This document shows, piece by piece, positions 545-63,114 of a DNA stretch of 64,000 nt. The notes beneath the pieces are model-generated. The model made no database searches. It was not told the origin of the DNA and was given only the letters and a program-made list of their open reading frames with translations. A program made the translations under genes and the position numbers. This DNA is from Styela clava (taxonomy: Eukaryota), in contig NC_135259.1 of NCBI RefSeq assembly GCF_964204865.1, forward strand, positions 15,128,001-15,192,000, in the 5' to 3' direction. Every line of letters begins with the position of its first letter. Within the stretch, counting starts at the first letter, position 1.

Positions 545-998
545 TCAGACAAACATGAAATTATCATGAACGCACATATATCCGTCAATGTCCGATATTT
601 CTACAAAAAGTTGTTTCTTCAATAAAATGACAAAAAATTATTTTAATTCAACAATATTATTATGTTACCTCGTTGTTCTGGCTGATCTACAATTGATCTT
701 TTTCGCTTTCCTTTCCACCCCGGAGTAGCCATTCTGAGCGCGAACGATCATAAATAATTTGAAAGTGGCTTTGATTTTCGGTATACCACACTTATTTATA
801 CCTCTTGCTCCGAACAAAACACCATGCAATCAACCACTCATATCTCACTTTTATTTGGAAGAGCCAGAATTTTTGAGGTTCTACATTGCCTGCCCAATTT
901 TTACACTTTGGATGGGATGGGGTCATGGAATTTGAATCCGAGATGTGTGATCTACGACGCCCACAGAGCAAAGTATAAAGCTTTAACCGCAAGGCCAT
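545..998 (-). CDS. Peptide precursor gene A (core MATPGWK-G-KRKR); exon 1 uncertain, possibly degenerate
   Basis: Exon 2 733-669 (cag|A...G|gtaac) = (R)MATPGWKGKRKRSIVDQPEQR, with family phases 2/1. Probable exon 3 600-545 = EISDIDGYMCVHDNFMFV*. Candidate exon 1 998-802 ends SKR|gtataa in phase 2 but lacks a clean signal peptide. Confidence 0.55.
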
Positions 999-1630
999 CG
1001 CGCTGCACAAGATTTAATACGTAATCTTGATGACTTGAAGAAGTACTCATTATGGAATCATTACCAATAGGTCATTTCAAATTCAATTTGGAAAATTATG
1101 TTAAATACCGCCATTATCCAAATCACTCATTCATAATTGCATCATGAAAGCATTAGGCCTTTAGAAGTTAATGGATACGAAATTTATAAATTGAAACTGC
1201 ACTACTTCAAAAATCATTTGGAAGTTTGAGCCTCTTTATGCTACGATCGCAGTTTTTTGTGATATGGGGTTTGTTCTGTTGTAGGATTATTTCTTTCTTT
1301 TTAATGGGATACGTGATGAATAATTCAGATTAGATTACCACTGTTAAATTAGTATATTTCGTAGGGTCGGTACCACTGTTAAAAAGAATGGGACCCCATT
1401 CCGTTTCCATCAAGATAAACTGTAATTTCATACTTTTGAATCCTTTTCCGAATAGCAGATATATAATTTACTTAGCTGTCCTACGAGAATGCGATTGTTT
1501 ATAACTTTGTGAGCGAATAATGAGCGATCTTTTCTCAAAATAAGGCGTGTTTAAAATCATTTATAATACAATTTCAAATTCTATTTTTGCTAAACAGCGT
1601 TTTAGGAGTAAAGTTAGCATTGAAGCATAC

Positions 1631-2168
1631 ATGGCTGCGAGGATATGGATTTTCGTTTTGGCGATGTGCGTTGCAGTATTGTTAGGACCTCAAAAAGGCA
1701 AGGCAGAAGATTCATTTCCTGGACCAGAATCAAGGTAATTTACTAAAAAAATATTTTAAAATCTCCAAATGTTGATTCCTGTTTCTTAGTTTTCGAGAAA
1801 ATCCGAATCTCAATGCAATTTGAACGATTGTTTTTTTTTTTCTCAATCGGATTCATCATCCGTTGTTTCAATTGTTGATGATTTAATTAAGAATACCAGG
1901 CGGAGAAGTGCCATGGAGTGGAAAAAAGAAAAGATCTGTTAAAGATGATTTGAATGATATAGGTGAGACTTTTATTAATGTTTATGTTGTATTTTTGCTG
2001 ATACTGAAAAGAGATGCAGGAGTAGCCCAACTGCATGTGAAGCAGATACTCGCGCATACTTTTGACAGACTTTGTATATGAATTTTGCTTTAAATAAGTC
2101 ACTTTTTTTCCAAACATGTGTTTTCTGTTTCAGATATGGATATTATTCTGTTTGGTGATATTGATTAA
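1631..2168 (+). CDS. Secreted peptide precursor gene B (predicted IPGGEVPWS-amide)
   Basis: Exons 1631-1734, 1892-1962, 2134-2168 (GT-AG, phases 2/1): MAARIWIFVLAMCVAVLLGPQKGKAEDSFPGPESR|IPGGEVPWSGKKKRSVKDDLNDI|DMDIILFGDID*. AATAAA at 2325. Confidence 0.85.
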
Positions 2169-4131: not shown

Positions 4132-5073
4132 TTACTCGAGAACCTCCGCCTCTATAAAAAGAGCGATATCTGTAAGAAAAAAAGTGATACATTCAATTAA
4201 TAGTGAAGTGGAAAGAATAAGATTTTAAAATTTGTCAACATGGCAGTGCAAAATATATTCGATAAACCTAAAATAATTAGCTTACCGGCTACAATTAATC
4301 AAATTTTGTTTATAAAAAAGTAGATTTAATTTAAAATTTGTCTCTCTTTTTCTATTAATTCAATAGAATATCCAATACCATTTTAATAAATTGATATTGG
4401 AACTTTTTAGGAAGCCTGTGCACCACTGTAAATACTTAATTCCAAATTCTCAATAGTTTCCTCAATGTTTAGCATTATTGCGCAATAGAAGACTTGGGAC
4501 ACATACTATTTTTTTTAACAAAGTGGTTTATATAAAGCTTATGTGGAATTCTCCATTGCCAACAAAGCAAAAATACAATTAGATCTTCCTTTGTAAAATG
4601 ACCCAGCAGGAATGTATAAAAGTAATTTTGCACGCGCCTGAATTTTCATCATTGTCTACTGTGGATCTCCTTTTCTTTTTTCCAAGCCACGCCGGGGCTA
4701 CTGGGTGTCTAAAATGCAATTTTTTATTATTATATGAACATATTGTTGCAATATATTACATAGTTTGATTTCATTTCATCAAAAAAAATACCAGAAATTA
4801 CAAAGTTTGTCATTATGAATCATCTATTTGCTGACATCTATTGAAACCAGAAAAAGTTGAGACAAACTATGAAAACTTGAACTATAAAACTTATTTAAAA
4901 TGTGGATAGAATGCAATGTAAATTGGTTGATACTTCCCGAAAAAATCGAAAAATCACCACCTTGAATAAACTATGCCATGAACAGCCGACTCTCCATCCT
5001 TGTCATTGCAATTGGTGATGTGGATGAACATAAAGCAATAAAGTACACAGATGAAAAAAAGTTCTACTTTCAT
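4132..5073 (-). CDS. Secreted peptide precursor gene C (predicted HPVAPAWL-amide)
   Basis: Exons 5073-4961, 4708-4638 (GC donor), 4169-4132: MKVELFFICVLYCFMFIHITNCNDKDGESAVHGIVYSR|HPVAPAWLGKKKRRSTVDNDENS|DIALFIEAEVLE*. Confidence 0.82.
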
Positions 5074-7481: not shown

Positions 7482-8225
7482 ATGAAGAATATCGCAATTT
7501 TTCTTGCTGTAGTCATGTTAGTTCTTAGCCAGGACATTTCTCCAGTTGAATGTCGGACATTGAAGATCAGTTCACCAATACGGTAAGTCAATTAGATTTC
7601 TGTTATATTTAGCTGGTTGAGTTAATGACGTTCTCCATTTCTTTGGGTCTCGGCTACTTTGAACAGTTGATATAGTTTCACAAATTATTCATTGCAAAAG
7701 GAATCCTGGGTGATAATTAATGAGATTCAAATATAAATTTTCTTCATCGAGAAATCGAAAACCCATAAAGTTTGCCATAGTTTAAGCACCATTATACCAA
7801 CCTCATCGTGTATTAAGTGATTCAGTTGAAAGTCGTTTATTTTACATTTTGCAGGTTAAGCACACAGCCACCATTCTACGCATGGGAACGGAAAAAGCGC
7901 AGTGTGGAAACTGATGTAAATTTGCAGATAAAAGGTGATGACATTTTAATTGATATTGTTAGACTTGGAAGTCTAAGTTTTATTTTAAAAAAATTCTTCA
8001 AGGCACTATTATGTAAATTTTTCGAAAGTACAAGTTATGGCTGAAAGAGTTCTCAGTTCTGATCAAGAAAATATTATGATCGTATCTCCAACGTTCAAAA
8101 TCTGAAGCTCAGCGTACTATGTCGTGGAAATCTCCATTCTCGATAATATTATCTTGTAAGTTTAAACACATTCACCTTTTGTTACAGAAAGAGAGAACAC
8201 GGTCATTGGACAAGCAAAAGGTTAA
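7482..8225 (+). CDS. Secreted peptide precursor gene D (predicted LSTQPPFYAWE)
   Basis: Exons 7482-7582, 7855-7934, 8188-8225: MKNIAIFLAVVMLVLSQDISPVECRTLKISSPIR|LSTQPPFYAWERKKRSVETDVNLQIK|ERENTVIGQAKG*. Confidence 0.87.
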
Positions 8226-8452: not shown

Positions 8453-9137
8453 TCATTTTCGCTTCATGGAAACAGGGTAAGTGGAAAGAATTAAAGAACT
8501 CCGGAATATATTGGTGAAAACTTCCCGCATAGAGATTTGACAATCCAGGACCTCTAACAATAAAATCCTTTCTGGGAAAGACGAAAGCAGAAAGTTCAGA
8601 CAAATATAGCTTGTTATTATAGATATTGCAGTACCTCGGACCATGATTCGTGGAATGGTAGAGGTTTAAGCAAGCGTCCTCAAAATTTAATGAGTAAAAA
8701 TGTTAAAAATCTTACTGTGAGATCACGAAAAAAAAAGCTATTGGAATGCTGCTTCAATCTAATTAAAAAGTTATTGCCGTCAACAAAAATGATAGTGGTG
8801 ACAGCTGTGGGTGTTTTTTTTTTGCATTGGATAAGACATTTGATTCATATGAGCTATGCGCTTACTGTTTGATATTTAAAGGTAAATATCAGTGTCATTA
8901 ACAATGCAAATTAAAATGAGATGTCGATGATTTTATTTCATATTTCCTTGTTAGTAAATTTGGCAAAAAATTTTTTGTTTGTTGGTACAAAGACTGTCAT
9001 CAGCGTATGCTTCTTCATGTACTTTTGCAATAAATGGATAGTGGAAGTATCGCTATTTTCATTCATTCAAACGATTCCCGCCAGGGTTGAATTTCGGTTC
9101 TGTTCGTATATACAATGGTTTTACGGCTTAAAATCAG
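8453..9137. repeat. Dispersed repeat family (related copies at 1-136, ~43880-44290 inverted, ~63620-63780 inverted)
   Basis: Shared blocks such as atggtccgaggtac and ttgtctgaactttc. The spurious ORFs 8453-8644 and 44084-44278 are visibly paralogous. Confidence 0.65.
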
Positions 9138-10994: not shown

Positions 10995-12396
10995 ATGAAG
11001 ACCGTCGCAATTTTTCTTGTTGTAGTTGTGCTGGTTAGCCTGGAAATTTCCCCAACTGACTGTCAGATATTGATGATCAGTTCACCGGTACAGGGGAGGT
11101 AAGTTTATTAGATTTCTGTTATTGAAGACGAATTGTACATATGGATTGTTTTGGTATTATGTTGTTGTTGTTCTAGTTAGTGTTTCTTTTCTTGTTGCTG
11201 TTAACTATTGGACCAATTGCTTTGAAATTTTCTACTGGTAAAAATTGTATCGTTCGCTAGAAGGCTCATTACTTTCATCTGTTTCATAAATTTCTGTAGG
11301 CTCTAAGTGATTCGTTTTTTTATGTTTGGTGAAATCATCAAAATTAAATATTGAGCACTTGTGGCAGTTCTTTGTTCGTGTTAGTAGTCAGGCGAAGTCA
11401 TTAATACTGTGGGATAGGTGGTCTACTGCGAAAGATTGCATATTCATACTACTCTGGTTTCGCCCTCGTGTACCTACATTTGAGCATTGCTCTCTTACTT
11501 TCTATAGAAGATCGGATTGAAGTTTTGAATGTTTGCACTCTATCCTCTCATGCTCTGTATTTAAACATTCGATATAATTTCACAAATTCTGAATTGTTTA
11601 TTCAGGGTGATAAATGATGATTTTCAAAAGTTTTCTTCGCCGATCGTTCGACGATGGAAATTTATCATATTTTAATTTACCATTATATATACATTACACT
11701 TTATACGAATTGATAAACTCATTCACACAAGTAGATTAATTGATATAACTTTGTTAACAAAGTACACCAGTGGTTCCAACTAGGGTTCCGAGTAACCCAA
11801 GGGTTACGCTAGTTCCGTCCAGGGATTCCACAAGTTTAAATCCAAATCCTAGAGTCTGTATGGTGTACGTATATTGTTTGTCTATAATCAATACGCGACT
11901 ATGAGATAATCATATAATAAGTGTGTTTCACTATTGTTCGGTGAAAGATCGCCAGACGTTCCGCGTCAAATCGTCGTTTCACATTTTATGATTATAAATA
12001 TAAGCATATTTAGATATAATCAATTTCACGGGAATTTCTCGAGTTTTTGAAATGTTTGTTGGTGTAAAAACACTGCTCTACATCAACTTTACGTTTTCTA
12101 TATTTCAGATATACCACACATGCACCATCTGTATGGAAACGGAAAAAGCGGAATGTCGAAAAGGATGAAAATTTGCAGACTGAAGGTGAAATATAGCAAA
12201 ATTGTTAATTAATGTTACACTTGAAAGTGAATTTATCTTTAAAAACAAATTCAAATCGAGTCAAAGCCGTGGCTTCAACATTTCAAAACCTGAAGCTCAG
12301 TATTAATCTGTGGGAAGCTTCATTCCCGTCAATGTTATCATGTAAGTTTAAACATCTCCACCTTTTATTACAGAAAGAGAGAAGGATTTATTTTGA
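10995..12396 (+). CDS. Secreted peptide precursor gene E (predicted YTTHAPSVW)
   Basis: Exons 10995-11098, 12109-12185, 12374-12396: MKTVAIFLVVVVLVSLEISPTDCQILMISSPVQGR|YTTHAPSVWKRKKRNVEKDENLQTE|EREKDLF*. Confidence 0.85.
11768..12075. mobile_element. hAT-like MITE in intron 1 of gene E
   Basis: CAGTGGTTCC...AAACACTG termini and gggttcc subterminal motifs. TSD not clean. Confidence 0.5.
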
Positions 12397-14103: not shown

Positions 14104-14818
14104 TTATTGAACATCTTCGAAAAGCTCAAAATCTGAAAAATAGGAAAATAATTTCAATTACTGGTATTATACAAAGAAAAACACTAAGCTGATTATTACT
14201 AGAAATAGAGTTTAAGCACAATGCGTGACATTTAAGCTATTATATTTTTAGATTATGCGATACTACAGGCGAAGTGTGATAAAATACATACGCCGCCACA
14301 CTCTTACAAAGAATATGATTTGCATATAAAATAGAAAATATAATTGAATTGCATTGATTAAAACGTGTGGTCCAAAACCAATGTATACCACAATATTGAA
14401 CGTGCCTGTATTTTCATCAATTTCAACTATTGATCTTCTTTTCTTTTTCCCCGCCCACCCCGGATCTGACGCCGACGGTTGTCTGAAGTGAAAAACATAA
14501 CATGTTGGCAACAAATTTATTATTTTCGTTTAAATTAGAGTGTAAAAGTGAGAAATGTGCAATAATTTATTTTCTCACTTTTTTGAATTGTTGAAGCAGT
14601 TTTACTTAACAGTTTCAATATTACATTTGTTATATATTATACAAAATATTCATTTACCTAACTTAATTGATGAAATAATTTATGTAAAAATTAAAAAATC
14701 ACCTTGACTCCGATTTACCGCTGCCAGGCTGACCCATAAAAATCATGTCCGCGCAAATAATGACTTGTACGAAAATGGAGCAATAAATGGCACACATGAG
14801 AACAAGTTTCAGATTCAT
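14104..14818 (-). CDS. Secreted peptide precursor gene F (predicted pQPSASDPGWA-amide)
   Basis: Exons 14818-14703, 14482-14406 (CAG|gcacgt GC donor), 14132-14104: MNLKLVLMCAIYCSIFVQVIICADMIFMGQPGSGKSESR|QPSASDPGWAGKKKRRSIVEIDENT|DFELFEDVQ*. Confidence 0.85.
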
Positions 14819-16209: not shown

Positions 16210-17036
16210 ATGTTCACCAATAAATGCAAAATGATGACTTTAGTGTTTGGGGCGATGCTTCTGCTGAACTTGTCATTCATTTCGGAGAAGTCATCAATGG
16301 TGGTTGCTCAATCATCAACAACAGTGAACCCAACGGGTCAAAGGAGGTAAGAAACTTTTTTCTAAAATCTAAACAAGTAATCGTAGACGATGTTGATGTA
16401 CCGAGATGATGTAACCGAACGTAATTGTTTCAAACGGAGTCTTTATCATGTATACAGGATCAACAAAACAACATGAAAGTCCTATTCCCACTATATTTCT
16501 ATTGAAAACAAGAATAGAGATAGGTAATAAACCACGATAAGCTTGTGATGATGTGTTTTAACAACCTCCGTCAACCACGTTTCGGTCAGATACATAGAAC
16601 ACTTTTATTTACTCATATTATCACAGATATTCAACCCCGTGGGGTGGAAAGAAACGATCAGTGGGGACGGACGAATTTTTCGGTAAGTTTTACGAAAACA
16701 TTCAAACCTTTTTCGTGGTTTTGTAGCAAACGAATTTACTGAAGTCCATATTTGACACACATAATGAAATAAATATAATTGTATTGGCTAAAATCAGACA
16801 GAATCCAAACGTATTTATTTGGTTAACACACACTAATGGCAATGATTGTGCTCCAAAGTAAAATAATTTTTTGAGGTTATAGATCTGGTCTCTACGTGAT
16901 ATTCCTAATTGTATTGAATTAAAATCAATCAAACATCAGCGTAAAAGTGTATTGAGTTATAAAGTTGACTAAATTATTTTTATTCCTTTTTATCTTAGAT
17001 GGCATCCAACTACTTGACGAAAACCACTTAGATTGA
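16210..17036 (+). CDS. Secreted peptide precursor gene G (predicted YSTPWG-amide)
   Basis: Exons 16210-16346, 16627-16682, 16999-17036: MFTNKCKMMTLVFGAMLLLNLSFISEKSSMVVAQSSTTVNPTGQRR|YSTPWGGKKRSVGTDEFF|DGIQLLDENHLD*. The core is flanked by RR and GKKR. Confidence 0.87.
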
Positions 17037-19084: not shown

Positions 19085-19787
19085 TCAATCTTCATCAAAT
19101 AAAAAGTTCTCAACTGAAAAAAAATGATCGATTTTATTTTTTTTAAAATTCTTTAGCTTGCTACTACGGCAATGCCTGGAGTTGCTGAATTCTACGCGTA
19201 ACGCTGTAGACGCAGGCAATTGAAGTAGAAAAAATATATATATATATCGTTGAATCGTACATAATTTATCATTCCCAAAAATATCTAAAATTTGTCATTT
19301 GTTAGCTCACCTTCAGCAGCAAAATCTTCTGCAATTGATCTTTTCTTGCTGCCACCCCATGGTGGACTCGGAGTACCTATTCTGTAGAATGTATTTGTCA
19401 CACATATAAAATTTTTCCAAAAAGTAATAATTCAATATAAATCAGATTAGGTCAAATGAAGCATCTTTTTACAATTTGTTGCGATGAAATACGCATTGTC
19501 CCTTTTAACTCGAAAAAAATTTGAATTGGCCAAGTGTAATCCCCAATGATATTTTAGTTAGCACTCTAAATTTGCACACTCAACATCTACTCTTCGCGAT
19601 ATCGAGCGAATTCTAAACCGAAAAGTTAATTTTATTTGGTGTTGAATGTTTGTAAAAGAGATTTTATTTATATTAGTATAAAATGTACAAACCTTCCTTG
19701 GTCAGGCGGAACTGCTTCTACACAATGATCTGAGACGACAAAAAATCCAAACATGAGCACAAAGCATAGACATGTTAACATCTTCAT
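19085..19787 (-). CDS. Secreted peptide precursor gene I (predicted IGTPSPPWGGS)
   Basis: Exons 19787-19693, 19381-19311, 19113-19085: MKMLTCLCFVLMFGFFVVSDHCVEAVPPDQGR|IGTPSPPWGGSKKRSIAEDFAAE|VENFLFDED*. Confidence 0.87.
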
Positions 19788-19874
19788 TTTGCGCAGAGTC
19801 TCATTCGCTCAAAAATAATATGATTAAAATCTAATCTGGTTCATAAAACAATTATTTTCAATAAGTACAGAATC

Positions 19875-21290
19875 AATATTTCCATAATTATTAGCAAATC
19901 ATTAGATTAGGCGACGGGTTTATGCAGTTGTCGCATAAAATAATAGAATGCAAGCATATTTGATATGCAGATTTGCTTCCAACGCAAACGGAGGTCATCT
20001 ATTTAAGAGAAGTCTGCTTAACTGCGTAACTGTTGTATTAGTGGGGTGTGGTTAGCTTAGCACTATGGTTAAATTGCATTGGAAACACAAATTAGGAGCC
20101 TCCCATATCCACCTGGCTCATATCATCTCGCGTCTGAAATGAGTATTGCAAGTATTTAGGAAAGACTGACTAAATTTATTTAAGTTTCGTACTGCAGTGA
20201 ACACTCGTTGGTTCGGTTCTTTTTGTCTATTTGCAAACAACTCGGGGCGCTATATGTAAGGGTTGCTGCTACTCACGGAATGCATATTTAGAAAAAAATA
20301 TTAAAATCGATAACATATATAAGAGATACCAATTTGTAAGTGGCACTTTAGCAATCTCTCAAGTGTTTTGCAATTTGTTCCAGAACACTTCTAAATCGAA
20401 GCCCTGTGCACGAACCGTAGTTAAATCTGGGGATCGAATTGAATGCCAATTAGAAAATTTGAAAATGTACCACATATCTGTGATGAAATTTCGGATATTG
20501 CTCAAATCGTTTTCTTCGGGGCCTGTGAAAAGTGTCCATGATTTGAGAGAAGGACAAGTTTGTTGACAACCTTTTATTTTTTGTTGTTATTCACGTTATT
20601 TAGTAATATAACTATATGATTGGCATTTCTGAATGTGATATGTGTATTTGCTGTAGGCCTATAAAACTCCAATATGTTGAATAAAGATTCAGAGCTTTAC
20701 ACAATATAATATGAATCAATAAAATGGAAACTGCCAAAATTAATATTATTGAGGTAATTGAACAGTACAACAAAAATTTATATTTTTACCAATCATTCCG
20801 TGCCGTAGCAATTTGACAAGACGGCATTGTTTCTGTATAAATTTTTGAAGTTTTAGATTAAATTAGGCAAACTACGAATTTCTTTTCCATAACATGGTTT
20901 TCGTTGTTTTTGAATTAAAATTGTTCATCACTTTACCGAAAACTTTTATTGAGATCCTAAAAAATCGTGTCAGCATGGCCTTGTTTTGGCAAGGTATATG
21001 CAGATTGTATGAGTTGAAACTCCTCAAAATGCTGACAAGTTGTTTAGTAATGCTATTGCAATGCTGTTTGCAATTATAGTTGTTTGCATTACATGGGAAA
21101 TTTGATGTGTGTACAGTGTACGGTGTAAAGCGGAAAAGGTCAATAATATATATACCGGCAAAATGCATTCATTGCGAAGTGCATATGATATATATAATAA
21201 TAACAATATTAAAAGAATATTTCAATTCCTCACGCATATACGACTACGACTAAAAGATAACGAGTCAAGTGTTCCTAGCAAAATCAAATT
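19875..21290. repeat. I/J intergenic segment, duplicated at 25282-26352 (direct) and ~26810-27165 (inverted)
   Basis: Near-identical sequence. Duplicated spurious ORFs (20872/26918, 20894/27007, 21109/26771). Confidence 0.85.
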
Positions 21291-21861
21291 TGACTCGAAT
21301 TAAAACGTTGTATCAATATCAAATCAAAGGATAATATTCAAATTTAGTTACAACCATTTGCAAATATAAATTATCGATATTCAATATTCTCCTTCATAGC
21401 GGAACGTCATTTGAGTTTTGATTTTATTTGAAAAGGCAAAATGATTGCTCTCATTTACTACTTTAAATATCAGAGTTCAGAACAAGTGTTTGTGCTAATG
21501 GACAAATTCATACTTTAAAAAATTAATGATAATCATGATTGCACGAGCAATTAAGGCCTTTATATCTGAAGAGACGGATTGATTTCATATCAAAAAGTTT
21601 GATGAAAAAATTGATCTTTTTGATGAATTCGTTTTGAGATTGCTGCAATTACCGCGATTATTTATATAATTGATCGACAATGCCGTGTATAAATCACTCC
21701 AGAAACTAATCCAACAACGCATTCCTAAAAAATTGAGCTTTCAGCTTCATTAAACCGGAAGAAATTTGGATACTTGAGAACAATCTTGTTCGGACAAAAC
21801 AATCTCATAAAAATAAATCAACTGAAGTCCAGTTTAACATTCTGACGCGTCGTAAACTAAG

Positions 21862-22780
21862 ATGAAGAATATCGCAATTTTTCTTGCTGTAGCTGTGTTA
21901 GTTCTTAGCCAGGACATTTCGTCCGTTGAATGTCGGACATTGATGATCAGTTCACCGATACAACATCGGTAAGTCTTTTAGATTTCTAATATTTTGTATA
22001 GCTGATAGAATATAAGAGTTTATAGGTTCTCCATCTCTTTATGTCTCTCCTACTTCTATCTTTTGATATATTTACAAATTCTTCATTGTATAATGGTATA
22101 CTGGGTAATAATGAGATTTAAATAAATATCTTCCTCTTCGATGAATCGAAAACACAAATTTACCTAATTACCGTTATACCAACATTATCATGGATTAAGC
22201 GATTCAATTAATTGAGTGATTAGTTGAAAGTAGTTTCTATAGCAACCTTTTGTTTTACATTTTCCAGATATAGCACAATACCACCATTCTACGCATATAT
22301 ACTGAAAAAGCGCAATGTGGAAAATGATGTGAATTTGCAGACGAGAGGTGACGACATTTTTGATTGTTGTTAGAAATTCTAAATTAATTTTTTTTTATTA
22401 AAATAAAATTTCACTGAGGTAATATAAGTTTTATTTCAGTCAAACAAGCGACGAAACGCGACCAAGTCGGATTAATAGTTTTATTTTTGCCCGAGATGCT
22501 CCCAATCTTAGTTCCAATACTTTGTGAGAGCCATACACCTATTCACTTAAGGCATCACGAGGTGAATTATTTGAAAGTGAAAGTTATGACTCGAAAAGGT
22601 CTCAGTTTTTAATCGAGAGTATCTTGAGGTTGCAGCTTCAACGTTTGAAACCTCAAGCTCAGTACTAAGTTGTAGGAATCTCCATTGTCGTGAATATTAT
22701 CTTGTAAGTTAAAACATCTCTACCTTTTTTTTACAGAAAGAGAGAACATGATCATTGGACAAGCAAAAAATGAAGTATGA
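21862..22780 (+). CDS. Secreted peptide precursor gene J (predicted YSTIPPFYAYIL)
   Basis: Exons 21862-21968, 22268-22347, 22737-22780: MKNIAIFLAVAVLVLSQDISSVECRTLMISSPIQHR|YSTIPPFYAYILKKRNVENDVNLQTR|ERENMIIGQAKNEV*. Confidence 0.87.
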
Positions 22781-24382: not shown

Positions 24383-25225
24383 ATGAAAAATATTGCAATT
24401 TTTCTTGCTGTGGTCATGTTAGTTCTTAGCCAGGACATTTCGCCCGTTGAAAGTCGGACATTGATGATCAGTTCACCGATACAAGACCGGTAAGTCTATT
24501 AGATTTCTGTTATTTTGTATAGCTGATAGAATATAAATGGTTATATGTTCTCCATCTCTTTATGCCTTGCCTACTCCTATTTTTTGATATATTACCAATT
24601 CTTCATTGTATAATGGTTACCATTATACCAACCTCATCATGGATTAAGCGATTCAGTTAATTGAGTGATTATTTGAAAGTAGTTTCCATAGCGACATATC
24701 GTTTTTCATTTTCCAGATATAGCACAATACCACCGTTCTACGCATACAAACTGAAAAAGCGCAATGTGGAAAATGATGTGAATTTGCAGACGAGAGGTGA
24801 CGACATTTTTGATTGATGTTAGAAATTCTAAATTAATTTTACTTCAAAATAAAATTTCATTGAGGTAATATAAGTTTTATTTTAGTCAAACAATCGACGA
24901 AAAGCGACCAAGTTGGATTAATAATTTCATATTTGCCCGAGATGAACCCAATCTTAGTTCCAATACTTTCTAAGAGCCATACACCTATTTCTTTGTGGCA
25001 ACACGAGGTGAATTAATTGAAAGTAAAAGTTATGACTCAAAAAGGTCTCAGTTTTGAATCGAGAGTATATTGAGCATGCAGCTTCAACGTTTAAGACCTC
25101 AAGCTCAGTACTAAGTTGTCGGAAACTCCATTATCGTGAATATTATCTTGTAAGTTAAAACATCTCTACCTTTTTTTACAGAAAGAGAGAACATGATAAT
25201 TGGACAAGCAAAAAATGAGGTATGA
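24383..25225 (+). CDS. Secreted peptide precursor gene K (predicted YSTIPPFYAYKL)
   Basis: Exons 24383-24489, 24717-24796, 25182-25225: MKNIAIFLAVVMLVLSQDISPVESRTLMISSPIQDR|YSTIPPFYAYKLKKRNVENDVNLQTR|ERENMIIGQAKNEV*. Confidence 0.87.
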
Positions 25226-27353: not shown

Positions 27354-28198
27354 TCATACTTCATTTTTTGCTTGTCCAATGATCGTGTTCTCTCTTTCTG
27401 TAAAAAAAGGTAGATATGTTTTAACTTACAAGATAATATTCACGATAATGGAGTTTCCGACAACTTAGTACTGAGCTTGAGGTCTTAAACGTTGAAGCTG
27501 CATGCTCAATATACTCTCGATTCAAAACTGAGACCTTTTTGAGTCATATCTTTTAATTTCAATTAATTCACCTCGTGTTGCCACAAAGAAATAGGTGTAT
27601 GGCTCTCAGAAAGTATTGGAACTAAGATTGGGTTCATCTCGGGCAAATATGAAATTATTAATCCAACTTGGTCGCTTTTCGTCGATTGTTTGACTAAAAT
27701 AAAACTTATATTACCTCAATGAAATTTTATTTTGAAGTAAAATTAATTTAGAATTTCTAACATCAATCAAAAATGTCGTCACCTCTCGTCTGCAAATTCA
27801 CATCATTTTCCACATTGCGCTTTTTCAGTTTGTATACGTAGAACGGTGGTATTGTGCTATATCTGGAAAATGAAAAACGATATGTCGCTATGGAAACTAC
27901 TTTCAACTAATCACTCAATTAACTGAATCGCTTAATCCATATGATGATGTTGGTATAATGGTAACCATTATACAATGAAGAATTGGTAATATATCAAAAA
28001 ATAGGAGTGGGCAAGGCATAAAGAGATGGAGAACATATAACCATTTATATTCTATCAGCTATACAAAATAACAGAAATCTAATAGACTTACCGGTCTTGT
28101 ATCGGTGAACTGATCATCAATGTCCGACTTTCAACGGGCGAAATGTCCTGGCTAAGAACTAACAAGACCACAGCAAAAAAAATTGCAATATTTTTCAT
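27354..28198 (-). CDS. Secreted peptide precursor gene L (predicted YSTIPPFYVYKL)
   Basis: Exons 28198-28092, 27862-27783, 27397-27354: MKNIAIFFAVVLLVLSQDISPVESRTLMISSPIQDR|YSTIPPFYVYKLKKRNVENDVNLQTR|ERENTIIGQAKNEV*. Confidence 0.87.
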
Positions 28199-32657: not shown

Positions 32658-33576
32658 TCATACTTCATTTTTTGCTTGTCCAATTATCATGTTCTCTCTT
32701 TCTGTAAAAAAAAGGTAGAGATGTTTTAACTTACAAGATAATATTCACGATAATGAAGATTCCTACAACTTAGTACTGAGCTTGAGGTTTCAAACGATGA
32801 AGCTGCAACCTCAATATACTCTCTATTAAAAACTGAGACCTTTTCGAGTCATAACTTTCACTTTCAAATAATTCACCTCGTGATGCCTTAAGGAAATAGG
32901 TGTATGGCTCTCACAAAGTATTGGAACTAAGATTGGGTGCATCTCGGGCAAAAATGAAACTATTAATCCGACTTGGTCGCTTTTCGTCGCTTGTTTGACT
33001 GAAATAAAACTTATATTACCGCAGTAAAATTTTATTTTATTAAAGAAAAATTAATTTAGAATTTCTAACAACAATCAAAAATGTCGTCACCTCTCGTCTG
33101 CAAATTCACATCATTTTCCACATTGCGCTTTTTCAGTATATATGCGTAGAATGGTGGTATTGTGCTATATCTGGAAAATGTAAAACAAAAGGTTGCTATA
33201 GAAACTACTTTCAACTAATCACTCAATTAACTGAATCGCTTAATCCATGATAATCTTGGTATAACGGTAATTAGGTAAATTTGTGTTTTCGATTCATCGA
33301 TGAGGAAGATTTTTATTTAAATCTTATTATTACCCAGTATACCATTATACAATGAAGAATTTGTAAATATATCAAAAGATAGAAGTAGGAGAGACATAAA
33401 GAGATGGAGAACCTATAACCTTTTATATTCTATCAGCTATACAAAATAATAGAAATCTGATAGACTTACCGGTCTTGTATCGGTGAACTGATCATCAATG
33501 TCCGACATTCAACGGACGAAATTTCCTGGCTAAGAACTAACACAACTACAGCAAGAAAAATTGCGATATTCTTCAT
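32658..33576 (-). CDS. Secreted peptide precursor gene N (predicted YSTIPPFYAYIL)
   Basis: Exons 33576-33470, 33170-33091, 32701-32658: MKNIAIFLAVVVLVLSQEISSVECRTLMISSPIQDR|YSTIPPFYAYILKKRNVENDVNLQTR|ERENMIIGQAKNEV*. Confidence 0.87.
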
Positions 33577-35160
33577 CTTAGTTTACGACGCGTCAGAATG
33601 TTAAACTGGACTTCAGTTGATTTATTTTTATGAGATTGTTTTGTCCGAAAAAGATTGTTCTCAAGTATCCAAATTTCTTGCCGTTTAATGAAGCTGAAAG
33701 CTCAATTTTTTAGGAATGCGTTGTTGGATTAGTTTCTGGAGTGATTTATACACGGCATTGTCGATCAATTATATAAATATTCGCGGTAATTGCAGCAATC
33801 TCAAAACGAATTCATCAAAAAGATCAAATTTTTTATCGAACTTTTTGATATGAAATCAATCCGTCTCTTCAGATATAAAGGCCTTAATTACTCGTGCAAT
33901 CATAATTATCATTAATTTTTTAAAGTATGAATTTGTCCATTAGCACAAACACTTGTTCTGAACTCTGATATTTAAAGTAGTAAATGAGAGCAATCATTTT
34001 GCCTTTTCAAATAAAATCAAAACTCAAATGACGTTCCGCTATGAAGGAGAATATTGAATATCGATAATTTATATTTGCAAATGGTTGTAACTAAATTTGA
34101 ATATTATCCTTTGATTTGATATTGATACAACGTTTTAATTCGAGTCAAACACATTAGGGTTAGTGTTTTGCTCTACACTCAACAAAAAAGTTTACCACTT
34201 GGGTAAAACCTAAACCCAGTTAACAATAATTAATTCGAATAAAAAAAAACTTTCATATTATCAGTTTTAGATTATCAATTTTGGGCATACAAATAATCAC
34301 ATTTGACCAAATGCCATTACTGAATAATTGCATTCATTATTTCGAATTCCATAATACGTTTTCAGTATCGATTTCACTGGTCTACGGTGTTTGTTATTTG
34401 GTTACTTTTATTACATTCGATTCAGTAGTTTTATGCCTACCAAGTCAATACATATTCAAGCATTAACAATAAACTCTTATTCGTAGGTTTCATAAGATCA
34501 AAACGACTGTTAGAACAGGCCAATTCATATACTTGGGCTCGAGAAGCAGAATAAAAAAGCAAAATTGAAATTCAACCAATCTTCAATATCAATATCATTT
34601 CAGAAATATAATATCAGCATCAATATCTACTATATTTTTTTTAACAATAAATTACTTGCACCTATTATCTATTCATTAAATGCCTTTGCCTTTTAGAAAA
34701 TTTTCAGATTTTGGCTTTTTCCAGTGTGCTGCCCGATGTCGAAAAATTATCAAACGTGATGCAACTTGTGTCACATTTAATTGGTCAATGTGCATTCGAA
34801 ACGATTCCGTTCCTTCCAGAAAGTAGTAGCCCATTTCAGGAAAGAGTATATGCCCGGGGGTTTTTCGAACTAAAATGACTGAAAATTCCGTGTAAGATAA
34901 CAAACCGTGTTATTTTGTACTATTGGCGAGAAATAAGGTTGAAAATTTTCTGATGGCACTGATAAACATATTTATTACGATTATATCCCATGGGCACAAA
35001 ATTACCTCACTAATACTAAAAATCAATGTTTTTCTGCCTACCCAATAGACCTCATGCCTCACGCCTATACCCAATAGACCGAACAATATTACGCTTAATT
35101 TGTGCAATATATATATGTTATTTAAAATTCCGTCATGACATTTTGAATCCGATTTATCAT

Positions 35161-36059
35161 TCATACTTCATTGTTTGCTTGTCCAATGATCGTGTTCTCT
35201 CTTTCTGCAAAAAAGGTAGAAATGTTTTAACAAAATAATATTCACGATAATGGAGATTCCGACAACTTAGTACTAAGCTTGAGGTTTAGAACGTTGAAGC
35301 TGCAAGCTCAATATACTCTCGATTCAAAACTGAGACCTTTTCGAGCCATAACTTTTACTTTCAATTAATTCACCTCGTGATGCCACAAAGAAATAGGTGT
35401 ATGGCTCTCTCAAACTATTGGAACTAAGATTGGGTGCATCTCGGGCAAAAATGAAACTATTAATCGCTTTTCGTCGCTTGTTTGACTGAAATAAAACTTA
35501 TATTACCTCAGTGAAAAATTATTTTAATAAAGAAAAATTAATTTAGAACTTCTAACATCATTCAAAAATGTCGTCACCTCTAGTCTGCAAATTCACATCA
35601 TTTGCCACGTTGCGCTTTTTCAGTTTATATACGTGGAATGGTGGTATTGTGCTATATCTGAGAAATCTAAAACAAAAGGTTGCTATAGAAACTACTTTCA
35701 ACTAATAACTCAATTAACCGAATCGAATAATGATGATGTTGCTATAATGGTAATCAAGTAAATTTGTGTCTTGATTCATCGATGAAGAAGATTTTTATTT
35801 AAATCTCATTATTACCCAGTATACCATTATATCATAAAGAATTTGTGCAATTATATCAAAAGTTAGAGGTAGGCGAGGCATAAAGACATGAAGAACATAT
35901 GACCCTTCAATTCTATCAGCTATACAAAATAACAAAAATCTAATAGACTTACCGGTCTCGTATCGGTGAACTGATGATCAATGTCCGACATTCAACGGAC
36001 GAAGTGTCCTGGCTAAGAACAAACACAACTACAGCAAGAAAAATTGCGATATTCTTCAT
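35161..36059 (-). CDS. Secreted peptide precursor gene O (predicted YSTIPPFHVYKL)
   Basis: Exons 36059-35953, 35657-35578, 35204-35161: MKNIAIFLAVVVFVLSQDTSSVECRTLIISSPIRDR|YSTIPPFHVYKLKKRNVANDVNLQTR|ERENTIIGQANNEV*. Confidence 0.87.
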
Positions 36060-37885
36060 CTTAGTTTACGACGCCTCAGAATGTTAAACTGGACTTCAGT
36101 TGATTTATTTTTATGAGATTGTTTTGTCCAAACAAGTCCTTTCACAAGTAACCAAATTTATTCTTGTTTAATGAAGCTGAAAGCTCAATTTTTTGGAAAT
36201 GCGTTGTTGGATTAGTTTCTGGAGTGATTTATATACGGCATTGTTGATCAATTATCTAAAAAATCGCGGTAATTGCAGCAATCTCGAAACGAATTCATCA
36301 AAAAGTTCAAATTTTTCATCGAACTTTTTGATATGAAATCAATCCGTCTCTTCAGATATAAAGGCCTTAATTGCTCGTGCAATCATAATAATTTTTTAAA
36401 GTATGAATTTGTTCACTAGCACAAACACTTGTTCTGAACTCTGATATTTAAAGTAGTGAACGAAAGCAATCATTTTGCCTTGTCAATGAAAATCAAAACT
36501 TAAATGACGTTCCGCTTTGAAGTAGAATATTGGATATCGATAATTTATATTTGCAAATGGTTGTCACTAAATTTGAATATTATTCTTTGATTTGATATTG
36601 GTACAACGTTTTAATTCGAGTCAAATACACTAAGGTTAGTGTTTTGCTCTACACTGGACAAAAAAGTTTACCACTTGGGTAAAACCTAAACCCAGTTAAC
36701 AATAATTAATTCGAATAAAAAAAACTTTCATATTATCAGTTTTAGATTATCAATTTTGTGCATACAAAAAATCACATTTGACCAAATGCCATTACTGAAT
36801 AATTGCATTCATTATTTCGAATTTTATACTACGTTTTCAGTATCGACTTCACTGGTCTACGGTGTTTGTTATTTGGCTACTTTTATTGCATTCGATTCAG
36901 TAGTTTTATGCCTACCAAGTCAATACATATTTATACTCTTAATTGAATATTGAGTTCTAGCATTAACAAGAAACTCTTATTCGTATGTTTCATAATATCA
37001 AAACTGTTAGAACAGGCCAATTCATATACTTTGGCTCAAGAAGCAGAAACTAAAAAAGCAAAATTGAAGTTCAACCAATATTCAATACCAATATCATTTC
37101 AGAAATATAATATCAGCATCAATATCTACTATATTCTATTAACATTAAATTACTTCACCCATTATCCGTGCATTAAATGCCTCTGCCTAAGTTAAAGGTA
37201 AATTTAGAATTTTGCAATTAAACAAATAATGGTAATGATCTCGATCATCCTACTAAAACGAAAACAAACTGATATGGACATTTTGAATATCTCAAGTGGC
37301 GGAAACCATATTACTTATGTCTAATTAGTCGCAAAAGATCGTGAATGAGTTTATTCAATTTAAACTCGCGCACCCAACGAAAATGATTATTCAAAATTTT
37401 TGTCGCAGCGAAAAGTAAATTGCTTTGTAGTTATTTTTAGTTCAAAAGTTAAAAAATTCATGTTTGTGACTTGTGAAGGAGTCTTGCTGTAATATGACTT
37501 ATTGTTCATACCCAAGGAAACATTTTATGAAAATCACAAGCTTTCGTTCGGTTCACAATTTGGGTATTGTAATCATAGTGTCGAAATTGCCATATACTGC
37601 TGTATCAACCGTCAGCTCACGAGCACCATCTTATGGCGACCTGATTAACGAAAACATCTTGAGCTTCAGAAATAGACATCAATCCAATTACTTGTTCTCA
37701 ACAGAATAATTGTTATGCAATAAAAAAAAATTTGATCCTCAAGAAGTAAATGCAGAAGCAGTTGCTAATGGTGAATCTTCCCTCAGGCAATCAGTAAAAA
37801 GATATAAATTACTCCAAGCCAAAGCGGACAAGACACCCAAAATCGAAGACCGTCTTCTTGTTTACGACTAAGCAACGCGAAGAAA

Positions 37886-39112
37886 ATGAAACATTTGACG
37901 ATTCGGTGTTTTGTCGTATTGTCTTCTATGCTTCTAATGTCTTACAACATTGTTCATACTCAACTGACTACGGAAAGACCTATACAATCAAGGTATGAGC
38001 ATTCATTCCATAATCGTATATCGTATATCCAATCCAATATATCCAATAATCGTATATCCATGTGCAATTGCTCCGCATACCTGTTTGCGCTACTGGAAAA
38101 GTCTTAATATCGTATTTTATCACACATTTGATTTTGAACGTCATAGATTGAATTCAATGCAACATGATAGAAGGAAATTATATGTGATCAATTTGATTGG
38201 CTAATAAATACATATATATATATAACATCGTTGATTTCTGGAGAATTTTACTATTCAAAGGTCATGCGATTATATTTAGATGATATTGCATTTATTTCAA
38301 TCCAAATTATCTTTATCAATCAAGAATTAATTACATATGTAATATTTATTTAATGTAATTATCTAAATATATATTTCAAATTGAATGTATTATATTTCCG
38401 ATATATGTAACTATAGAAAAGTTTATTTGGGGTGAAACAGCCTTCATGATAAACATGTAGGCCTATCCAATACGTAAGTCCAGTCAAACGAAAATTAATT
38501 GATTCTCCATCTAAATATTTTTTAATTTCTCATTTTTAGGCTAGGCAACACCCCACCGTGGCCAGGAAAGAAGAAACGGGACGTTGGAAAATTTGATAAA
38601 ATTACAGGTTTGTTAGTAAAAATTGCTCAGAAGTTTGCAGAAATATAAGCAAGACCCAATATAAAAGTCAAATAACATCAAATCAAAAACGTAATATGCC
38701 GCACTATTTATATCATTTTTAGATACCGTACCATTTACCATGTATCCTCTTTTATAACAAAAAATAATAACTCGTGTATTCAAATACTTTTTAACATACA
38801 AACACTTACATGATATCTAATAAACTTTTTTTTTGTACAGATGACGAATTATTCTTTGACGACGACTCACAGATAAGGATGCCAAGTATGAGTACTTACA
38901 AGTATTCGATTCTTATCCGATTCCTAAATTTTCGATTCCGATTCTCGATTCCGAATCTCGATTCCTCGACATATCTTACCGAAAACACATACCCACCTAA
39001 GCAATACCATATGAAAGTAGTATGGGTATCCAATCTGCCACAGGAGACAAAATCGCACAAAAAAACAAATCCCTCAGAACCCACAGAGATTTTTAAAATA
39101 AATAAACGTTAA
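37886..39112 (+). CDS. Secreted peptide precursor gene P (predicted LGNTPPWP-amide), exon 3 extended by a MITE
   Basis: Exons 37886-37992, 38540-38607, 38841-39112: MKHLTIRCFVVLSSMLLMSYNIVHTQLTTERPIQSR|LGNTPPWPGKKKRDVGKFDKIT|DDELFFDDDSQI, then read-through into the insertion. Confidence 0.8.
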
Positions 39113-59428: not shown

Positions 59429-60341
59429 TCATACTTCATTTTTTGCTTGTCCAATGATCATGTTCTCTCTTTCTGTAAAAAAAAAGATAGAGATGTTTTA
59501 ACTTACAAGATAATATTTACGATAATGGAGATTCCTACAACTTAGTACTGAGCTTGAGGTTTCAAACGTTGAAGCTGCAACCTCAATATACTCTCGATCA
59601 AAAACTGAGACCTTTTCGGGTCATACCTTTTACTTTCAAATAATTCACTTCGTGATGCCTTAAAGAAATAGGTGTATGGCTCTCACAAAGTATTGGAACT
59701 AAGATTGGGTGCATCTCGGGCAAAAATGAAACTATTAATCCGACTTGGTCGCTTTTCGTCGCTTGTTTGACTGAAATAAAACTTATATTATCTCAATAAA
59801 ATTTTATTTTAAAGAAAAATTAATTTAGAATTTCTAACATCAATCAAAAATGTCGTCACCTCTCGTCTGCAAATTCACATCATTTTCCACATTGCGCTTT
59901 TTCAGTTTATATACATGGAATGGTGGTATTGTGCTATATCTGAGAAATGTAAAACAAAAGGTTGTTATAGAAACTACTTTCAACTAATAACTCAATTAAC
60001 TGAATCGAATAATGATGAAGTTGCTATAATGGTAATCAAGTAAATTTGTGTTTTGATTCATCGATGGAGAATATTTTTATTTAAATCTCATTATTACCCA
60101 GTATACCATTATATCATAAAGAATTTGTGCAATTATATCAAAAGTTAGAGGTAGGCGAGGCATAAAGACATGAAGAACATATGACCCTTCAATTCTATCA
60201 GCTATACAAAATAACAAAAATCTAATAGACTTACCGGTCTTGTATCGGTGAACTGATCATCAATGTCCGACATTCAACGGACGAAGTGTCCTGGCTAAGA
60301 ACAAACACAACTACAGCAAGAAAAATTGCGATATTCTTCAT
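59429..60341 (-). CDS. Secreted peptide precursor gene Q (predicted YSTIPPFHVYKL)
   Basis: Exons 60341-60235, 59939-59860, 59472-59429: MKNIAIFLAVVVFVLSQDTSSVECRTLMISSPIQDR|YSTIPPFHVYKLKKRNVENDVNLQTR|ERENMIIGQAKNEV*. Confidence 0.87.
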
Positions 60342-62169
60342 CTTAGTTTACGACGCTTAGTTAAACTGGACTTCAGTTGATTTATTTTTATGAGGTTGTT
60401 TTGTCCAAACAAGTCCTTTCACAAGTAACCAAATTTCTTCCTGTTTAATGAAGCTGAAAGCTCAATTTTTTGGGAATGCGTTGTTGGATTAGTTTCTGGA
60501 GTGATTTATATACGGCATTGTTAATCAATTATTTAAAAAAATCGCGGTAATTGCAGCAATCTCGAAACGAATTCATCAAAAAGTTCAAATTTTTCATCGA
60601 ACTTTTTGATATGAAATCAATCCGTCTCCTCAGATATAAAGGCCTTAATTGCTCGTGCAATCATAATAATTTTTTAAAGTATGAATTTGTTCATTAGCAC
60701 AAACACTTGTTCCGAATTCTGATATTCAAAGTAGTGAACGAAAGCAATCATTTTGCCTTGTCAATGAAAATCAAAACTTAAATGACGTTCCGCTTTGAAG
60801 TAGAATATTGGATATCGATAATTTATATTTGCAAATGGTTGTCACTAAATTTGAATATTATCCTTTGAATTGATATTAATACAACGTTTTATTTCGAGTC
60901 AAATACACTAAGGTTAGTGTTTTGCTCTACACTGGACAAAAAAGTTTACCACTTGGGTAAAACCTAAACCCAGTTAACAATAATTAATTCGAATAAAAAA
61001 AACTTTCATATTATCAGTTTTAGATTATCAATTTTGTGCATACAAAAAATCACATTTGACCAAATGCCATTACTGAATAATTGCATTCATTATTTCGAAT
61101 TTTATACTACGTTTTCAGTATCGACTTCACTGGTCTACGGTGTTTGTTATTTGGCTACTTTTATTGCATTCGATTCAGTAGTTTTATGCCTACCAAGTCA
61201 ATACATATTTTTACTCCTAATTAAATATTGAGTTCTAGCATTAACAAGAAACTCTTATTCGTAGGTTTCATAATATCAAAACTGTTAGAACAGGCCAATT
61301 CATATACTTTGGCTCAAGAAGCAGAAACAAAAAAAGCAAAATTGAAGTTCAACCAAGATTCAATACCAATATCATTTCAGAAATATAATATCAGCATCAA
61401 TATCTACTATATTTTATTAACATTAAATTACTTCACCCACCCGTGCATTAAATGCCTCTGCCTAAGTTAAAGGTAAATTTGGAATTTTGCAATTAAACAA
61501 ATAATGGTAATGATCTCGATCATCCTACTAAAACGAAAACAAACTGATATGGACATTTTGAATATCTCAAGTGGCGGAAACCATAATACTTATGTCTGAT
61601 TAGTCGCAAAAGATCGTGAAGGAGTTTATTCAATTTAAACTCGAGCACCCAACGAAAATGATTATTCAAAATGTTTGTCGCAGCGAAAAGTAAATTGCTT
61701 TGTAGTTATTTTTAGTTCAAAAGTTAAAAAATTTATGTTTGTGACTTGTGAAGGAGTCTTGCTGTAATATGACTTATTGTTCATACCCAAGGAAACATTT
61801 CATGAAAATCATAATCAGCTTTCGGTCGGTTCACAATTTGGGTATTGTAATCATAGTGTCGAAATTGCCCTATACTGCTGTATCAAACGGCAGTCACAGC
61901 TCACGAGCATCATCTTATGGCAACCTGATTAACGAAAACATCTTGAGCTTCAGAAAAAGACATCAATTCAATTACTTGTTCTCAACAGAATAATTGTTAT
62001 GCAATAATTAATTTTTCGATCCTCAAGTAGTAAATGCAGAAGCAGTTGCTAAGGATGAATCTCCCCTCAGGCAATCAGTAAAAAGATATAAATTACTCCA
62101 AGTCAAAGCAGAAAATACACTCATAATCGAAGACTCTCATCTTGTTTACGACTACGCAACGCGAAGAAA

Positions 62170-63114
62170 ATGAAACATTTGACGATTCGGTGTTTTGTGT
62201 TATTGTCTTTTATGCTTCTGATGTCTTACAACATTGTTCATACTCAACTGACTACGGAAGGACCTATACAATCAAGGTATGAGTATTCCATAATCATATG
62301 TCCAAGTGCAATTGCTTCGCATACTTGTTTGCGCTACTGTAAAAGTCTGAATATTGTATTTTAACACACATTTGGGTTTGAACGTCCTAGATTGAATTGA
62401 ATGCAACATGATAGAAGGAAATTATCTGTGATCAATTTGATTGGTGAATAAATATATATATAACATCGTTGATTTTTGGAGAATTTTACTATTCAAAGGT
62501 CATGCGATTGTATGCAGATGATATTGCATTATTTCAATCCAAATTATCTTTATCAATCAAGAATTGAGTACATATGTTTTATTTATTCAATGTAAATATT
62601 TAAATATTTTAAATTGAATTTATCTTATTTCTGCTATATGTAACTATGGAAAATTTCTTTGAGGTGAAACAGCTTTCATGATAAACATGTAGGCCTATCC
62701 AATACGTAAGTCCAGACAAACGAAGATTAATTGATTCTCCATCTAAATATTTTTTAATTTCTCATTTTTAGGCTAGGCAACACCCCACCGTGGCCAGGAA
62801 AGAAGAAACGGGACGTTGGAAAATTTGATAAAATAACAGGTTTGTTAGTAGAAATTAGTAAGAGTTTGCAGAAATAAAAGCAAGACCCAATATAAAAGTC
62901 AAATAACATTAAATCAAAAACGTAATATACCGCATTATTTAGAGCCTTTTCAGATATCGTACCATTTATCATGCATCCTCTCCTAAAACAAAAAATAATA
63001 ACTCGTGTATTCCAATACTTTTTAACATACAAATATTTACACGTTATCTAATAAACTTTTTTTTGTACAGATGACGAATTATTCTTTGACGACGACTCAC
63101 AGATCGATCACTGA
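62170..63114 (+). CDS. Secreted peptide precursor gene R (predicted LGNTPPWP-amide)
   Basis: Exons 62170-62276, 62772-62839, 63071-63114: MKHLTIRCFVLLSFMLLMSYNIVHTQLTTEGPIQSR|LGNTPPWPGKKKRDVGKFDKIT|DDELFFDDDSQIDH*. Confidence 0.88.

Follow-up and report, generated by a model that had tools for sequence, protein, structure and literature searches.

A clustered family of predicted secreted-peptide precursors in Styela clava and the history of its head-to-head gene pairs

Neuropeptides confined to a single lineage are known in ascidians: the available text of two reports (PMC6475428, PMC12441681) describes the Ciona-specific peptides Ci-NTLP, Ci-LF and Ci-YFV/L as lineage-specific, with G protein-coupled receptors (GPCRs) of their own. 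Peptide precursors are usually recognized by a signal peptide, a basic site and an optional Gly, and in the GnRH/AKH/corazonin superfamily the peptide sits directly after the signal peptide (PMC4772807, accessible part); the text and legend of PMC4923880, in the sections available, conflict on the number of introns. Paired genes are a feature of the silkmoth chorion locus where, according to the accessible part of PMC4639761, HcA and HcB always stand head-to-head at a distance of 330 nt and share promoters that are more than 90% identical. The current study concerns a stretch of 64,000 nucleotides from the ascidian Styela clava (NC_135259.1, positions 15,128,001 to 15,192,000 of the forward strand), referred to as the window, in which 17 loci of one family of secreted-peptide precursors were found, many of them in head-to-head pairs.

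The reading favored here, with moderate confidence, is that the window holds a birth-and-death cluster of a single prohormone-type family of the Styela lineage, in which the pairs would have arisen mainly by duplication and the pair would not be a fixed functional unit. By analogy with the Ciona peptides, the products are most likely lineage-specific signaling peptides.

The precursor family and its predicted peptides

Sixteen of the loci gave ATG-anchored three-exon models, while the remaining one (A) is an orphan exon 2. The precursors run from a signal peptide through a Pro/Trp-rich core and a Lys/Arg cluster to an acidic tail. In all 16 full models, exon 1 encodes the signal peptide and a short extension, and intron 1 is in phase 2 and lies inside a basic codon (junction residue Arg in 15 models, Lys in one). 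Exon 2 encodes the Pro-rich core, which finishes near a Trp, Phe or Tyr, together with the Lys/Arg cluster and the start of the tail, and intron 2, in phase 1, interrupts the tail, the rest of which is encoded by exon 3. A hydrophobic core was present in the first exon of all 16 models by hydropathy scan or by eye, A lacking that exon, and a di- or polybasic cleavage site follows the peptide in 17/17 loci and is invariant among J, K, L, N, O and Q. The exon-2 pattern had 25 matches in the window, alternative acceptors counted, and none in each of 30 shuffles; the G+C content was 30-38% in 2-kb bins.

The spliced model of Q was identical (76/76 residues) to RefSeq XP_077973517.1 (LOC144428314 X2), and older RefSeq models matched those of J, K, L and N to within 2 residues; RefSeq models were retrieved for one group of copies only, the MKNIAIF type described below. 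Four RefSeq isoforms of Q differ only after the basic site and include an intron-2 read-through and an alternative last exon. The three other isoforms thus retain the signal, core and basic site, and this alteration of the tail alone fits a tail that is disposable. In the 15 pairwise comparisons among J, K, L, N, O and Q, amino-acid-changing differences (0.043) were below both synonymous differences (0.105) and intron differences, indicating that the reading frames of these recent copies are under selection; Fisher's test gave P<0.05 for coding constraint in 5/8 pairs, the eight having been selected from 18 non-independent pairs. No positive selection was seen in the core in this comparison (ratio 0.45).

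An earlier, preliminary description of the window had divided the genes into a Trp class with a PxW core and an MKNIAIF type. The contrast is real in one respect, since a Gly directly precedes the basic cluster in 8/9 Trp-class loci and in 0/8 MKNIAIF-type loci, but the division into two kinds of gene did not stand: D and E are of MKNIAIF type yet keep the core Trp, and in B and G the core carries PW in place of PxW. The two groups are evidently one family, the Gly before the basic cluster being the true difference.

Among the nine Trp-class loci, A (669..733, minus strand) consists of exon 2 (733-669), with a PGW core, Gly and basic cluster; no signal-peptide exon was found for it between 1640 and 701 or in a window-wide scan, and A is a probable relic. 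A start codon at 1431 (minus strand) was considered as its exon 1, with a slight likeness to the first codons of C and F, and was rejected when it scored below shuffles. This codon lies only 200 bp from the start of B; if it is a remnant of exon 1, A/B was once a very tight pair. B (1631..2168, plus) has exons 1631-1734, 1892-1962 and 2134-2168, C (4132..5073, minus) exons 5073-4961, 4708-4638 and 4169-4132, and F (14104..14818, minus) exons 14818-14703, 14482-14406 and 14132-14104. Intron 2 of C (at 4637) and of F (at 14405), both on the minus strand, has an apparent GC donor, a rare shared feature that fits the close relation of the two genes. G (16210..17036, plus) starts at 16210 or 16231, its exon 1 extending to 16346 and being followed by 16627-16682 and 16999-17036. 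I (19085..19787, minus) has exons 19787-19693, 19381-19311 and 19113-19085, and a Ser separates its Gly from the basic site. M (30160..31100, plus) has a PPW core, the Lys at the junction and a TATA box at -85; a short deletion at 30267 leaves a weak in-frame donor for intron 1, which may splice poorly. In P (37886..39043, plus), exon 3, which begins at 38841, is broken in its last codons by an insertion of ~477 bp (~38874-39351) with a 9-base target duplication, and the frame runs on into the insertion to a total of 125 residues. R (62170..63114, plus) has exons 62170-62276, 62772-62839 and 63071-63114.

On the MKNIAIF side, D (7482..8225, plus; exons 7482-7582, 7855-7934 and 8188-8225) keeps Trp without Gly and has a TATA box at about -169, and E (10995..12396, plus; exons 10995-11098, 12109-12185 and 12374-12396) is an MKNIAIF-related gene that is unpaired. 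J (21862..22780, plus) is a recent inverted copy related to N (32658..33576, minus, unpaired), and K (24383..25225, plus, unpaired) is an inverted near-copy of L (27354..28198, minus), 1.4% different. O (35161..36059) and Q (59429..60341) are both on the minus strand. A window-wide exon scan turned up no locus H in the interval from G to I.

If established prohormone processing applies, the signal peptide would be removed, a convertase would cut at the Lys/Arg cluster and a carboxypeptidase would trim the basic residues. Gly would then be converted to an amide in the Trp class, giving Trp-x-amide ends, and the MKNIAIF clade would have free acid ends. Each gene would release one secreted peptide of 17-27 residues, or of 6-12 with a further cut at the junction Arg, and the acidic tail would be discarded. 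An extension of 6-15 residues and a basic residue precede the core. The predicted peptides of the 16 models, for which signal cleavage sites were set by eye, are near neutral (net charge -2 to +3) with 2-5 Pro, and the tails carry -6 to -7 in the eight full Trp-class models and -1 to -4 in the MKNIAIF type. Kinins end in Phe-x-x-Trp-Gly-amide, and a Phe three residues before the Trp was absent from every Gly-bearing core. The neurotensin-like end of J and N lies one codon change from the state in K, L, O and Q and was set aside as recent and coincidental.

Two shared-word family searches and a full HMMER search returned no relatives outside S. clava. The shared-word searches gave one match among 238 candidates (9-83 residues) and two among 635 (9-133 residues), both from S. 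clava, and HMMER gave two matches at E<=0.001 among 1.84 billion sequences, one an S. clava protein and the other a 1,747-residue tandem-repeat frame (P0126), whose score was summed over 26 weak stretches and which was judged unrelated. In a control, 15/16 models would pass the HMMER search (all but G), including 7/8 full Trp-class models; the control is circular and so establishes the absence of these proteins from the library but not that of distant relatives, and short, diverged relatives could be missed by searches of this kind. Pfam gave no family match worth naming, and its GnRH and AKH profiles matched none of the 16 pieces scanned, a weak test since the pieces are short; nothing was found in the PDB under E 0.5, Rfam gave no matches and a second Atlas query gave no leads. 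A literature search found nothing under the locus or protein identifiers and no description of the six core motifs, the matches to one motif being unrelated by title. Most members of the family are undescribed, and it has the look of a prohormone family.

Arrangement and history of the head-to-head pairs

The strand order of the 17 loci is -+-++-+-++-+--+-+, and its seven minus/plus adjacencies are the head-to-head pairs of the preliminary description (A/B, C/D, F/G, I/J, L/M, O/P and Q/R), all of which were recovered in place, with the caveat that A is exon 2 only, so that A/B joins a probable relic to an intact gene. Five pairs (C/D, I/J, L/M, O/P and Q/R) do combine a Trp-class with an MKNIAIF-type gene, and the reported spacing of 1.4-2.4 kb is borne out by ATG-to-ATG distances of 1,413-2,409 bp: 2,409 bp in C/D, 2,075 in I/J, 1,962 in L/M, 1,827 in O/P, 1,829 in Q/R and 1,413 in F/G, the last measured from the ATG at 16231 with 16210 as an alternative start. 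A/B and F/G are Trp/Trp pairs, and 3/8 MKNIAIF-type genes (E, K and N) have no head-to-head partner.

The head-to-head gaps (1,412-2,408 bp in the six pairs with two starts) are no tighter than the tail-to-tail gaps (1,557-2,128 bp in five cases, plus one of 20,385 bp) or the tandem gaps (1,584-2,769 bp in three cases). When all 17 loci were shuffled, the probability of seven or more divergent adjacencies was 0.012. The loci are not independent, as they include cassette copies and other recent copies, and the probability rose to 0.078 when the cassette represented by L/M, O/P and Q/R was counted once and to 0.105 when J, K and N were also dropped. TATA boxes were found ~170 bases before D and J-Q and ~84 bases before M, P and R; C, E and I had none within 300 bases. 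The two partners in L/M, O/P and Q/R each have their own TATA box. In O/P and Q/R, the TATA positions (~170 and ~84 bp) imply ~1.6 kb between transcription starts, which were inferred from the TATA boxes only; a bidirectional-promoter pair is defined, in the available text of PMC7817982 and PMC4089025, by transcription starts less than 1 kb apart.

A block in the C/D intergenic region had been reported to recur, inverted, in O/P. The block is real, but the inversion merely reflects the minus-strand position of O and Q, and relative to the gene the sense is the same. A 15-base motif occurs in three exact copies (6267, plus; 37244 and 61519, minus), where 0.33 were expected and 0/100 shuffles reached three, and it lies within a block of ~150 bases with ~70% identity at 6238-6386 in C/D, 37157-37287 in O/P and 61446-61562 in Q/R. 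The block is placed at an equal distance from the MKNIAIF-type start in these pairs (-1,244 to -1,096 from D, hence 1.1-1.24 kb upstream, and -1,228 to -1,098 from O). This island, present in 3/7 pairs, is near the middle of the C/D intergenic region. It was not found in L/M or I/J, nor upstream of the unpaired genes E and K, and the upstream homology of N to O ends at its edge (-1,115). In L/M, a microsatellite and a repeat-like element (29008-29832) take the place of the segment in which O/P has the island. Across seven independent upstream regions, those of B, C, D, F, G, I and P, no 7- or 8-mer was shared beyond the level of 100 shuffles.

It had been deduced from the block that the pairing is old, a deduction that the comparison of the flanking genes overturned. 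Between D and O, alignment extends over the two flanks, 5' and 3', and both introns (z 19-71), whereas C has no non-coding alignment anywhere with P, R or M (z -1.1 to 0.8). The closest paralog of C is F, and that of P is I. Had the whole pair been duplicated, C and P should resemble each other about as closely as D and O do; consequently, C/D and O/P are not duplicates of one pair. The intergenic homology of C/D and O/P ends just past the island, with none in the 0.9 kb adjoining C, and the island, as proof of an old pair, was ruled out on these grounds. Homology of the D and O non-coding DNA without homology of C and P indicates that the island traveled with the MKNIAIF-type gene and not with the pair.

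The other mixed pairs have histories of their own. O/P (34804..38874) and Q/R (59074-63104) are copies of a 4-kb cassette, 5.9% different, and L/M (27154-31464) is a third, partial copy. The I/J intergenic region (19788..21861) is a mosaic, in which 87 unique bp beside I are followed by 19875-20922 (1.05 kb), also present at 25282-26352 after K (4.0% different), by 20916-21287 (372 bases), an inverted copy of 26805-27170 just downstream of L (1.6% different), and by 21289-21861 (573 bases), common to the promoter of N (1.6% different). Given the cassette copies and this recent mosaic, the five mixed pairs have three origins.

A cluster shaped by duplication, as favored above, would account for these features as follows. 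In a cluster of ~2-kb spacing, successive rounds of inverted and tandem duplication would be the main source of head-to-head pairs; an MKNIAIF-type gene, with ~1.25 kb of upstream DNA including the candidate enhancer, would have been placed beside different Trp-class genes; and one Trp/MKNIAIF pair would then have been copied twice, with every gene keeping its own core promoter.

Several observations weigh against this explanation. All nine Trp-class loci have a head-to-head neighbor, and eight mutually unalignable lineages (A, B, C, D, F, G, I and M) alternate -+-+-+-+ (P=0.014), although this test dropped nine loci and its subset of lineages was chosen post hoc, after the data had been seen. 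Neither the strict alternation nor the universal pairing of Trp-class loci is predicted if the pairs are purely a by-product. The intergenic block is a conserved island, with z 11-17 against at most 4.5 in the 450 bp on the D side. The tree of the family (12 rows) leaves the deep branches unsettled, only 1/9 inner branches being well supported. As to the products, neither the shared-word nor the HMMER searches returned a Trp-class protein record, so that expression of the Trp class is presumed, the Atlas neighbors (PDH, NPF and GnRH precursors) scored 0.81-0.85, below the 0.9 threshold for a lead, and a fast-changing cluster of 17 copies with acidic tails also fits defense peptides.

The alternation speaks for a head-to-head layout that is itself ancient, which we regard as a tentative but serious alternative. 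A/B, C/D, F/G and I with the ancestor of M/P would descend, by duplication, from an old inverted two-gene unit, and the MKNIAIF clade would have invaded later, replacing or separating partners. The pairing would then be old, but not the pairing of Trp class with MKNIAIF type, and this proposal is partly compatible with a duplication-driven cluster. The left-hand, minus-strand members A, C and F resemble one another (C and F at z 15-18; A grouping with F at support 86/72), and I and M/P/R are mutually closest and face apart across the J/K/L insertions. However, B, D and G, on the right-hand side, show hardly any similarity (z 3-5), left and right members were recovered as two clades in only 1% of bootstrap trees, and the alternating subset is the one picked post hoc.

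Function of the peptides and control of the pairs

The main alternative on the function of the products is doubtful: the genes would encode host-defense or tunic peptides, or precursors of modified (e.g. brominated or hydroxylated) peptides, and the acidic tail would be a neutralizing or enzyme-recognition piece. Modification of Trp and Tyr is known in Styela peptides. The cluster expands fast, and its precursors resemble Ci-MAM, Ci-PAP, the styelins and the clavanins as presented in the available text of PMC7387483, with a length of 50-100 residues and the same order of signal, active part and anionic tail, the latter most acidic in the eight full Trp-class models. That source, in its accessible part, gives a net charge of +3 to +10 and an amphipathic helix as features of the antimicrobial peptides, with cleavage before acidic residues and no basic motif in the Ciona candidates. 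The Styela cores, by contrast, are near neutral, only 1/16 reaching the floor of +3; they are rich in Pro, which makes a helix unlikely; and polybasic processing sites are present in all loci. Near-neutral, Pro-rich peptides that lack the antimicrobial features, together with the Ciona precedent, favor signaling, and the peptides would presumably act on GPCRs as the Ciona-specific neuropeptides do.

The preliminary description had further suggested a co-regulated two-peptide module under shared bidirectional control. Such a module would be a selected combination of an amidated Trp peptide and a non-amidated MKNIAIF peptide, arranged as in silkmoth chorion A/B. Part of the case survives. Three independent junctions each join both types, the types differ consistently in the amidation signal, the cassette was copied twice as a pair, and the island, mid-way between C and D, is conserved in O/P and Q/R. 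An island better conserved than its surroundings fits a constrained enhancer, for which it is a candidate, and neighbors may share some expression through it; the sequence is compatible with action on one gene or on both. The remainder of the case did not hold. C and P are each closer to another paralog and show no homology in their non-coding DNA; L/M and I/J lack the island, and I/J is a recent mosaic; E, K and N stand without a partner, while A/B and F/G each join two Trp-class loci; the gaps are not tighter than other gaps, and the TATA boxes are separate. A module is thus possible but weakly indicated, and as a complete explanation it is unlikely.

A broader proposal, which we consider quite improbable, combines these elements. 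The divergent layout would be ancient and selected, with an enhancer at its center driving an amidated Trp peptide and its non-amidated sister in the same cells, and the MKNIAIF clade would have spread by taking that enhancer to new Trp-class partners, thereby rewiring co-release. The peptides would make up an unrecognized chordate signaling family, possibly a diverged branch of GnRH/AKH/corazonin.

It is very unlikely that J/N, K/L and hence the I/J junction are artifacts of an assembly from mixed haplotypes. The copies do differ by 1.4-1.6%, near the heterozygosity of 1.72% given for the species in the available text of PMC7540406, but they are inverted with different flanks, the introns of J and N differ by 3.7%, and several J/K-like sequences, distinct from one another, occur in LOC120337617, an older RefSeq locus, as well.

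Neighboring elements and comparison with known systems

The window contains several other elements. An intronless partial copy of SENP1 (51145-52108, minus strand), covering residues 176-496 of 496 with one frameshift, is 97-99% identical to an S. clava SENP1-like RefSeq protein, the next named relatives being at ~55-64%; it lies among large inverted repeats (49264-51006 with 57438-58488, and 52096-52782 with 55204-55874). A broken hAT-type transposase, which has a zinc finger of the Spin-doc kind as well as a dimerization domain, is at 44539-46328 (minus), and a Cys-rich open frame of 158 residues at 40967-41443 (minus), without a Pfam match, is probably a transposon remnant. The segments 1-134 and 9001-9137 are 93% identical and exactly 9,000 bases apart, beside a repeat at 8466-8966, and probably belong to a mobile element, inside which the window would by chance begin.

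With this cluster, a well-studied invasive tunicate gains at least 16 candidate bioactive peptides, and the Trp-class genes of the cluster appear to have been missed by annotation. In a single locus, a hormone-like family appears to have divided into one branch with amidated and another with non-amidated products, and the steps of duplication, inversion and exchange of partners are dated. The pairs with the island (C/D, O/P and Q/R), those without it (L/M and I/J) and the unpaired copies (E, K and N) provide a natural test of shared control.

Divergent genes for secreted products that lie 1-2 kb apart and share enhancers or cells are known in the bombyxin A/B pairs and the Drosophila yolk-protein pair, where the products are unrelated and co-expression has been shown, whereas the Styela pairs are known from the genes alone.

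Membership of the GnRH/AKH/corazonin superfamily, as a tunicate branch that has diverged strongly, is highly improbable and serves as a lead only, because the Styela core lies 6-15 residues from the signal peptide and not directly after it, has neither an aromatic at position 4 nor a C-terminal PG-amide, is found in a mature region that is split by an intron, and drew no match from the profiles of the short pieces. The likeness behind this lead is that of a precursor in which a signal peptide and a single peptide precede Gly, a basic site and then an associated peptide (PMC4923880, PMC4772807, available text), with Pro-x-Trp or Gly-Trp, compared by eye, near the predicted C-terminal amide of A, C, F, M, P and R. 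The nearness of Pro-x-Trp to the amide is reminiscent of AKH precursors and of PGW in starfish GnRH, a peptide with which the F core shares Gln at position 1, Pro at 7, Gly at 8 and Trp at 9 (PMC4923880, accessible part).

As in the silkmoth chorion A/B locus (PMC4639761, as far as available), two gene types form a multigene cluster whose divergent pairs were copied as units and which also has inversions, pseudogenes and members that lack a partner. Joint duplication of both partners with their intergenic DNA was seen only in L/M, O/P and Q/R, and neither between C/D and O/P nor in I/J; no cis-element is common to all pairs, given an island in 3/7 and no k-mer above shuffles. Unlike chorion genes, the Styela genes lie 1.4-2.4 kb from their partners, have exchanged them, and show no conservation of the intergenic DNA on the side of the Trp gene.

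The Ciona-specific neuropeptides are likewise short secreted ascidian peptides that derive from precursors and are without sequence relatives elsewhere (PMC6475428, PMC12441681, available text). No motif is common to the Styela cores and Ci-NTLP-2, the sole Ciona-specific sequence compared, and other Ciona peptides may be similar. The Ciona-specific precursors, in the same sources, hold several peptides each, whereas the Styela cluster would encode one per gene and owe its diversity to 17 loci.

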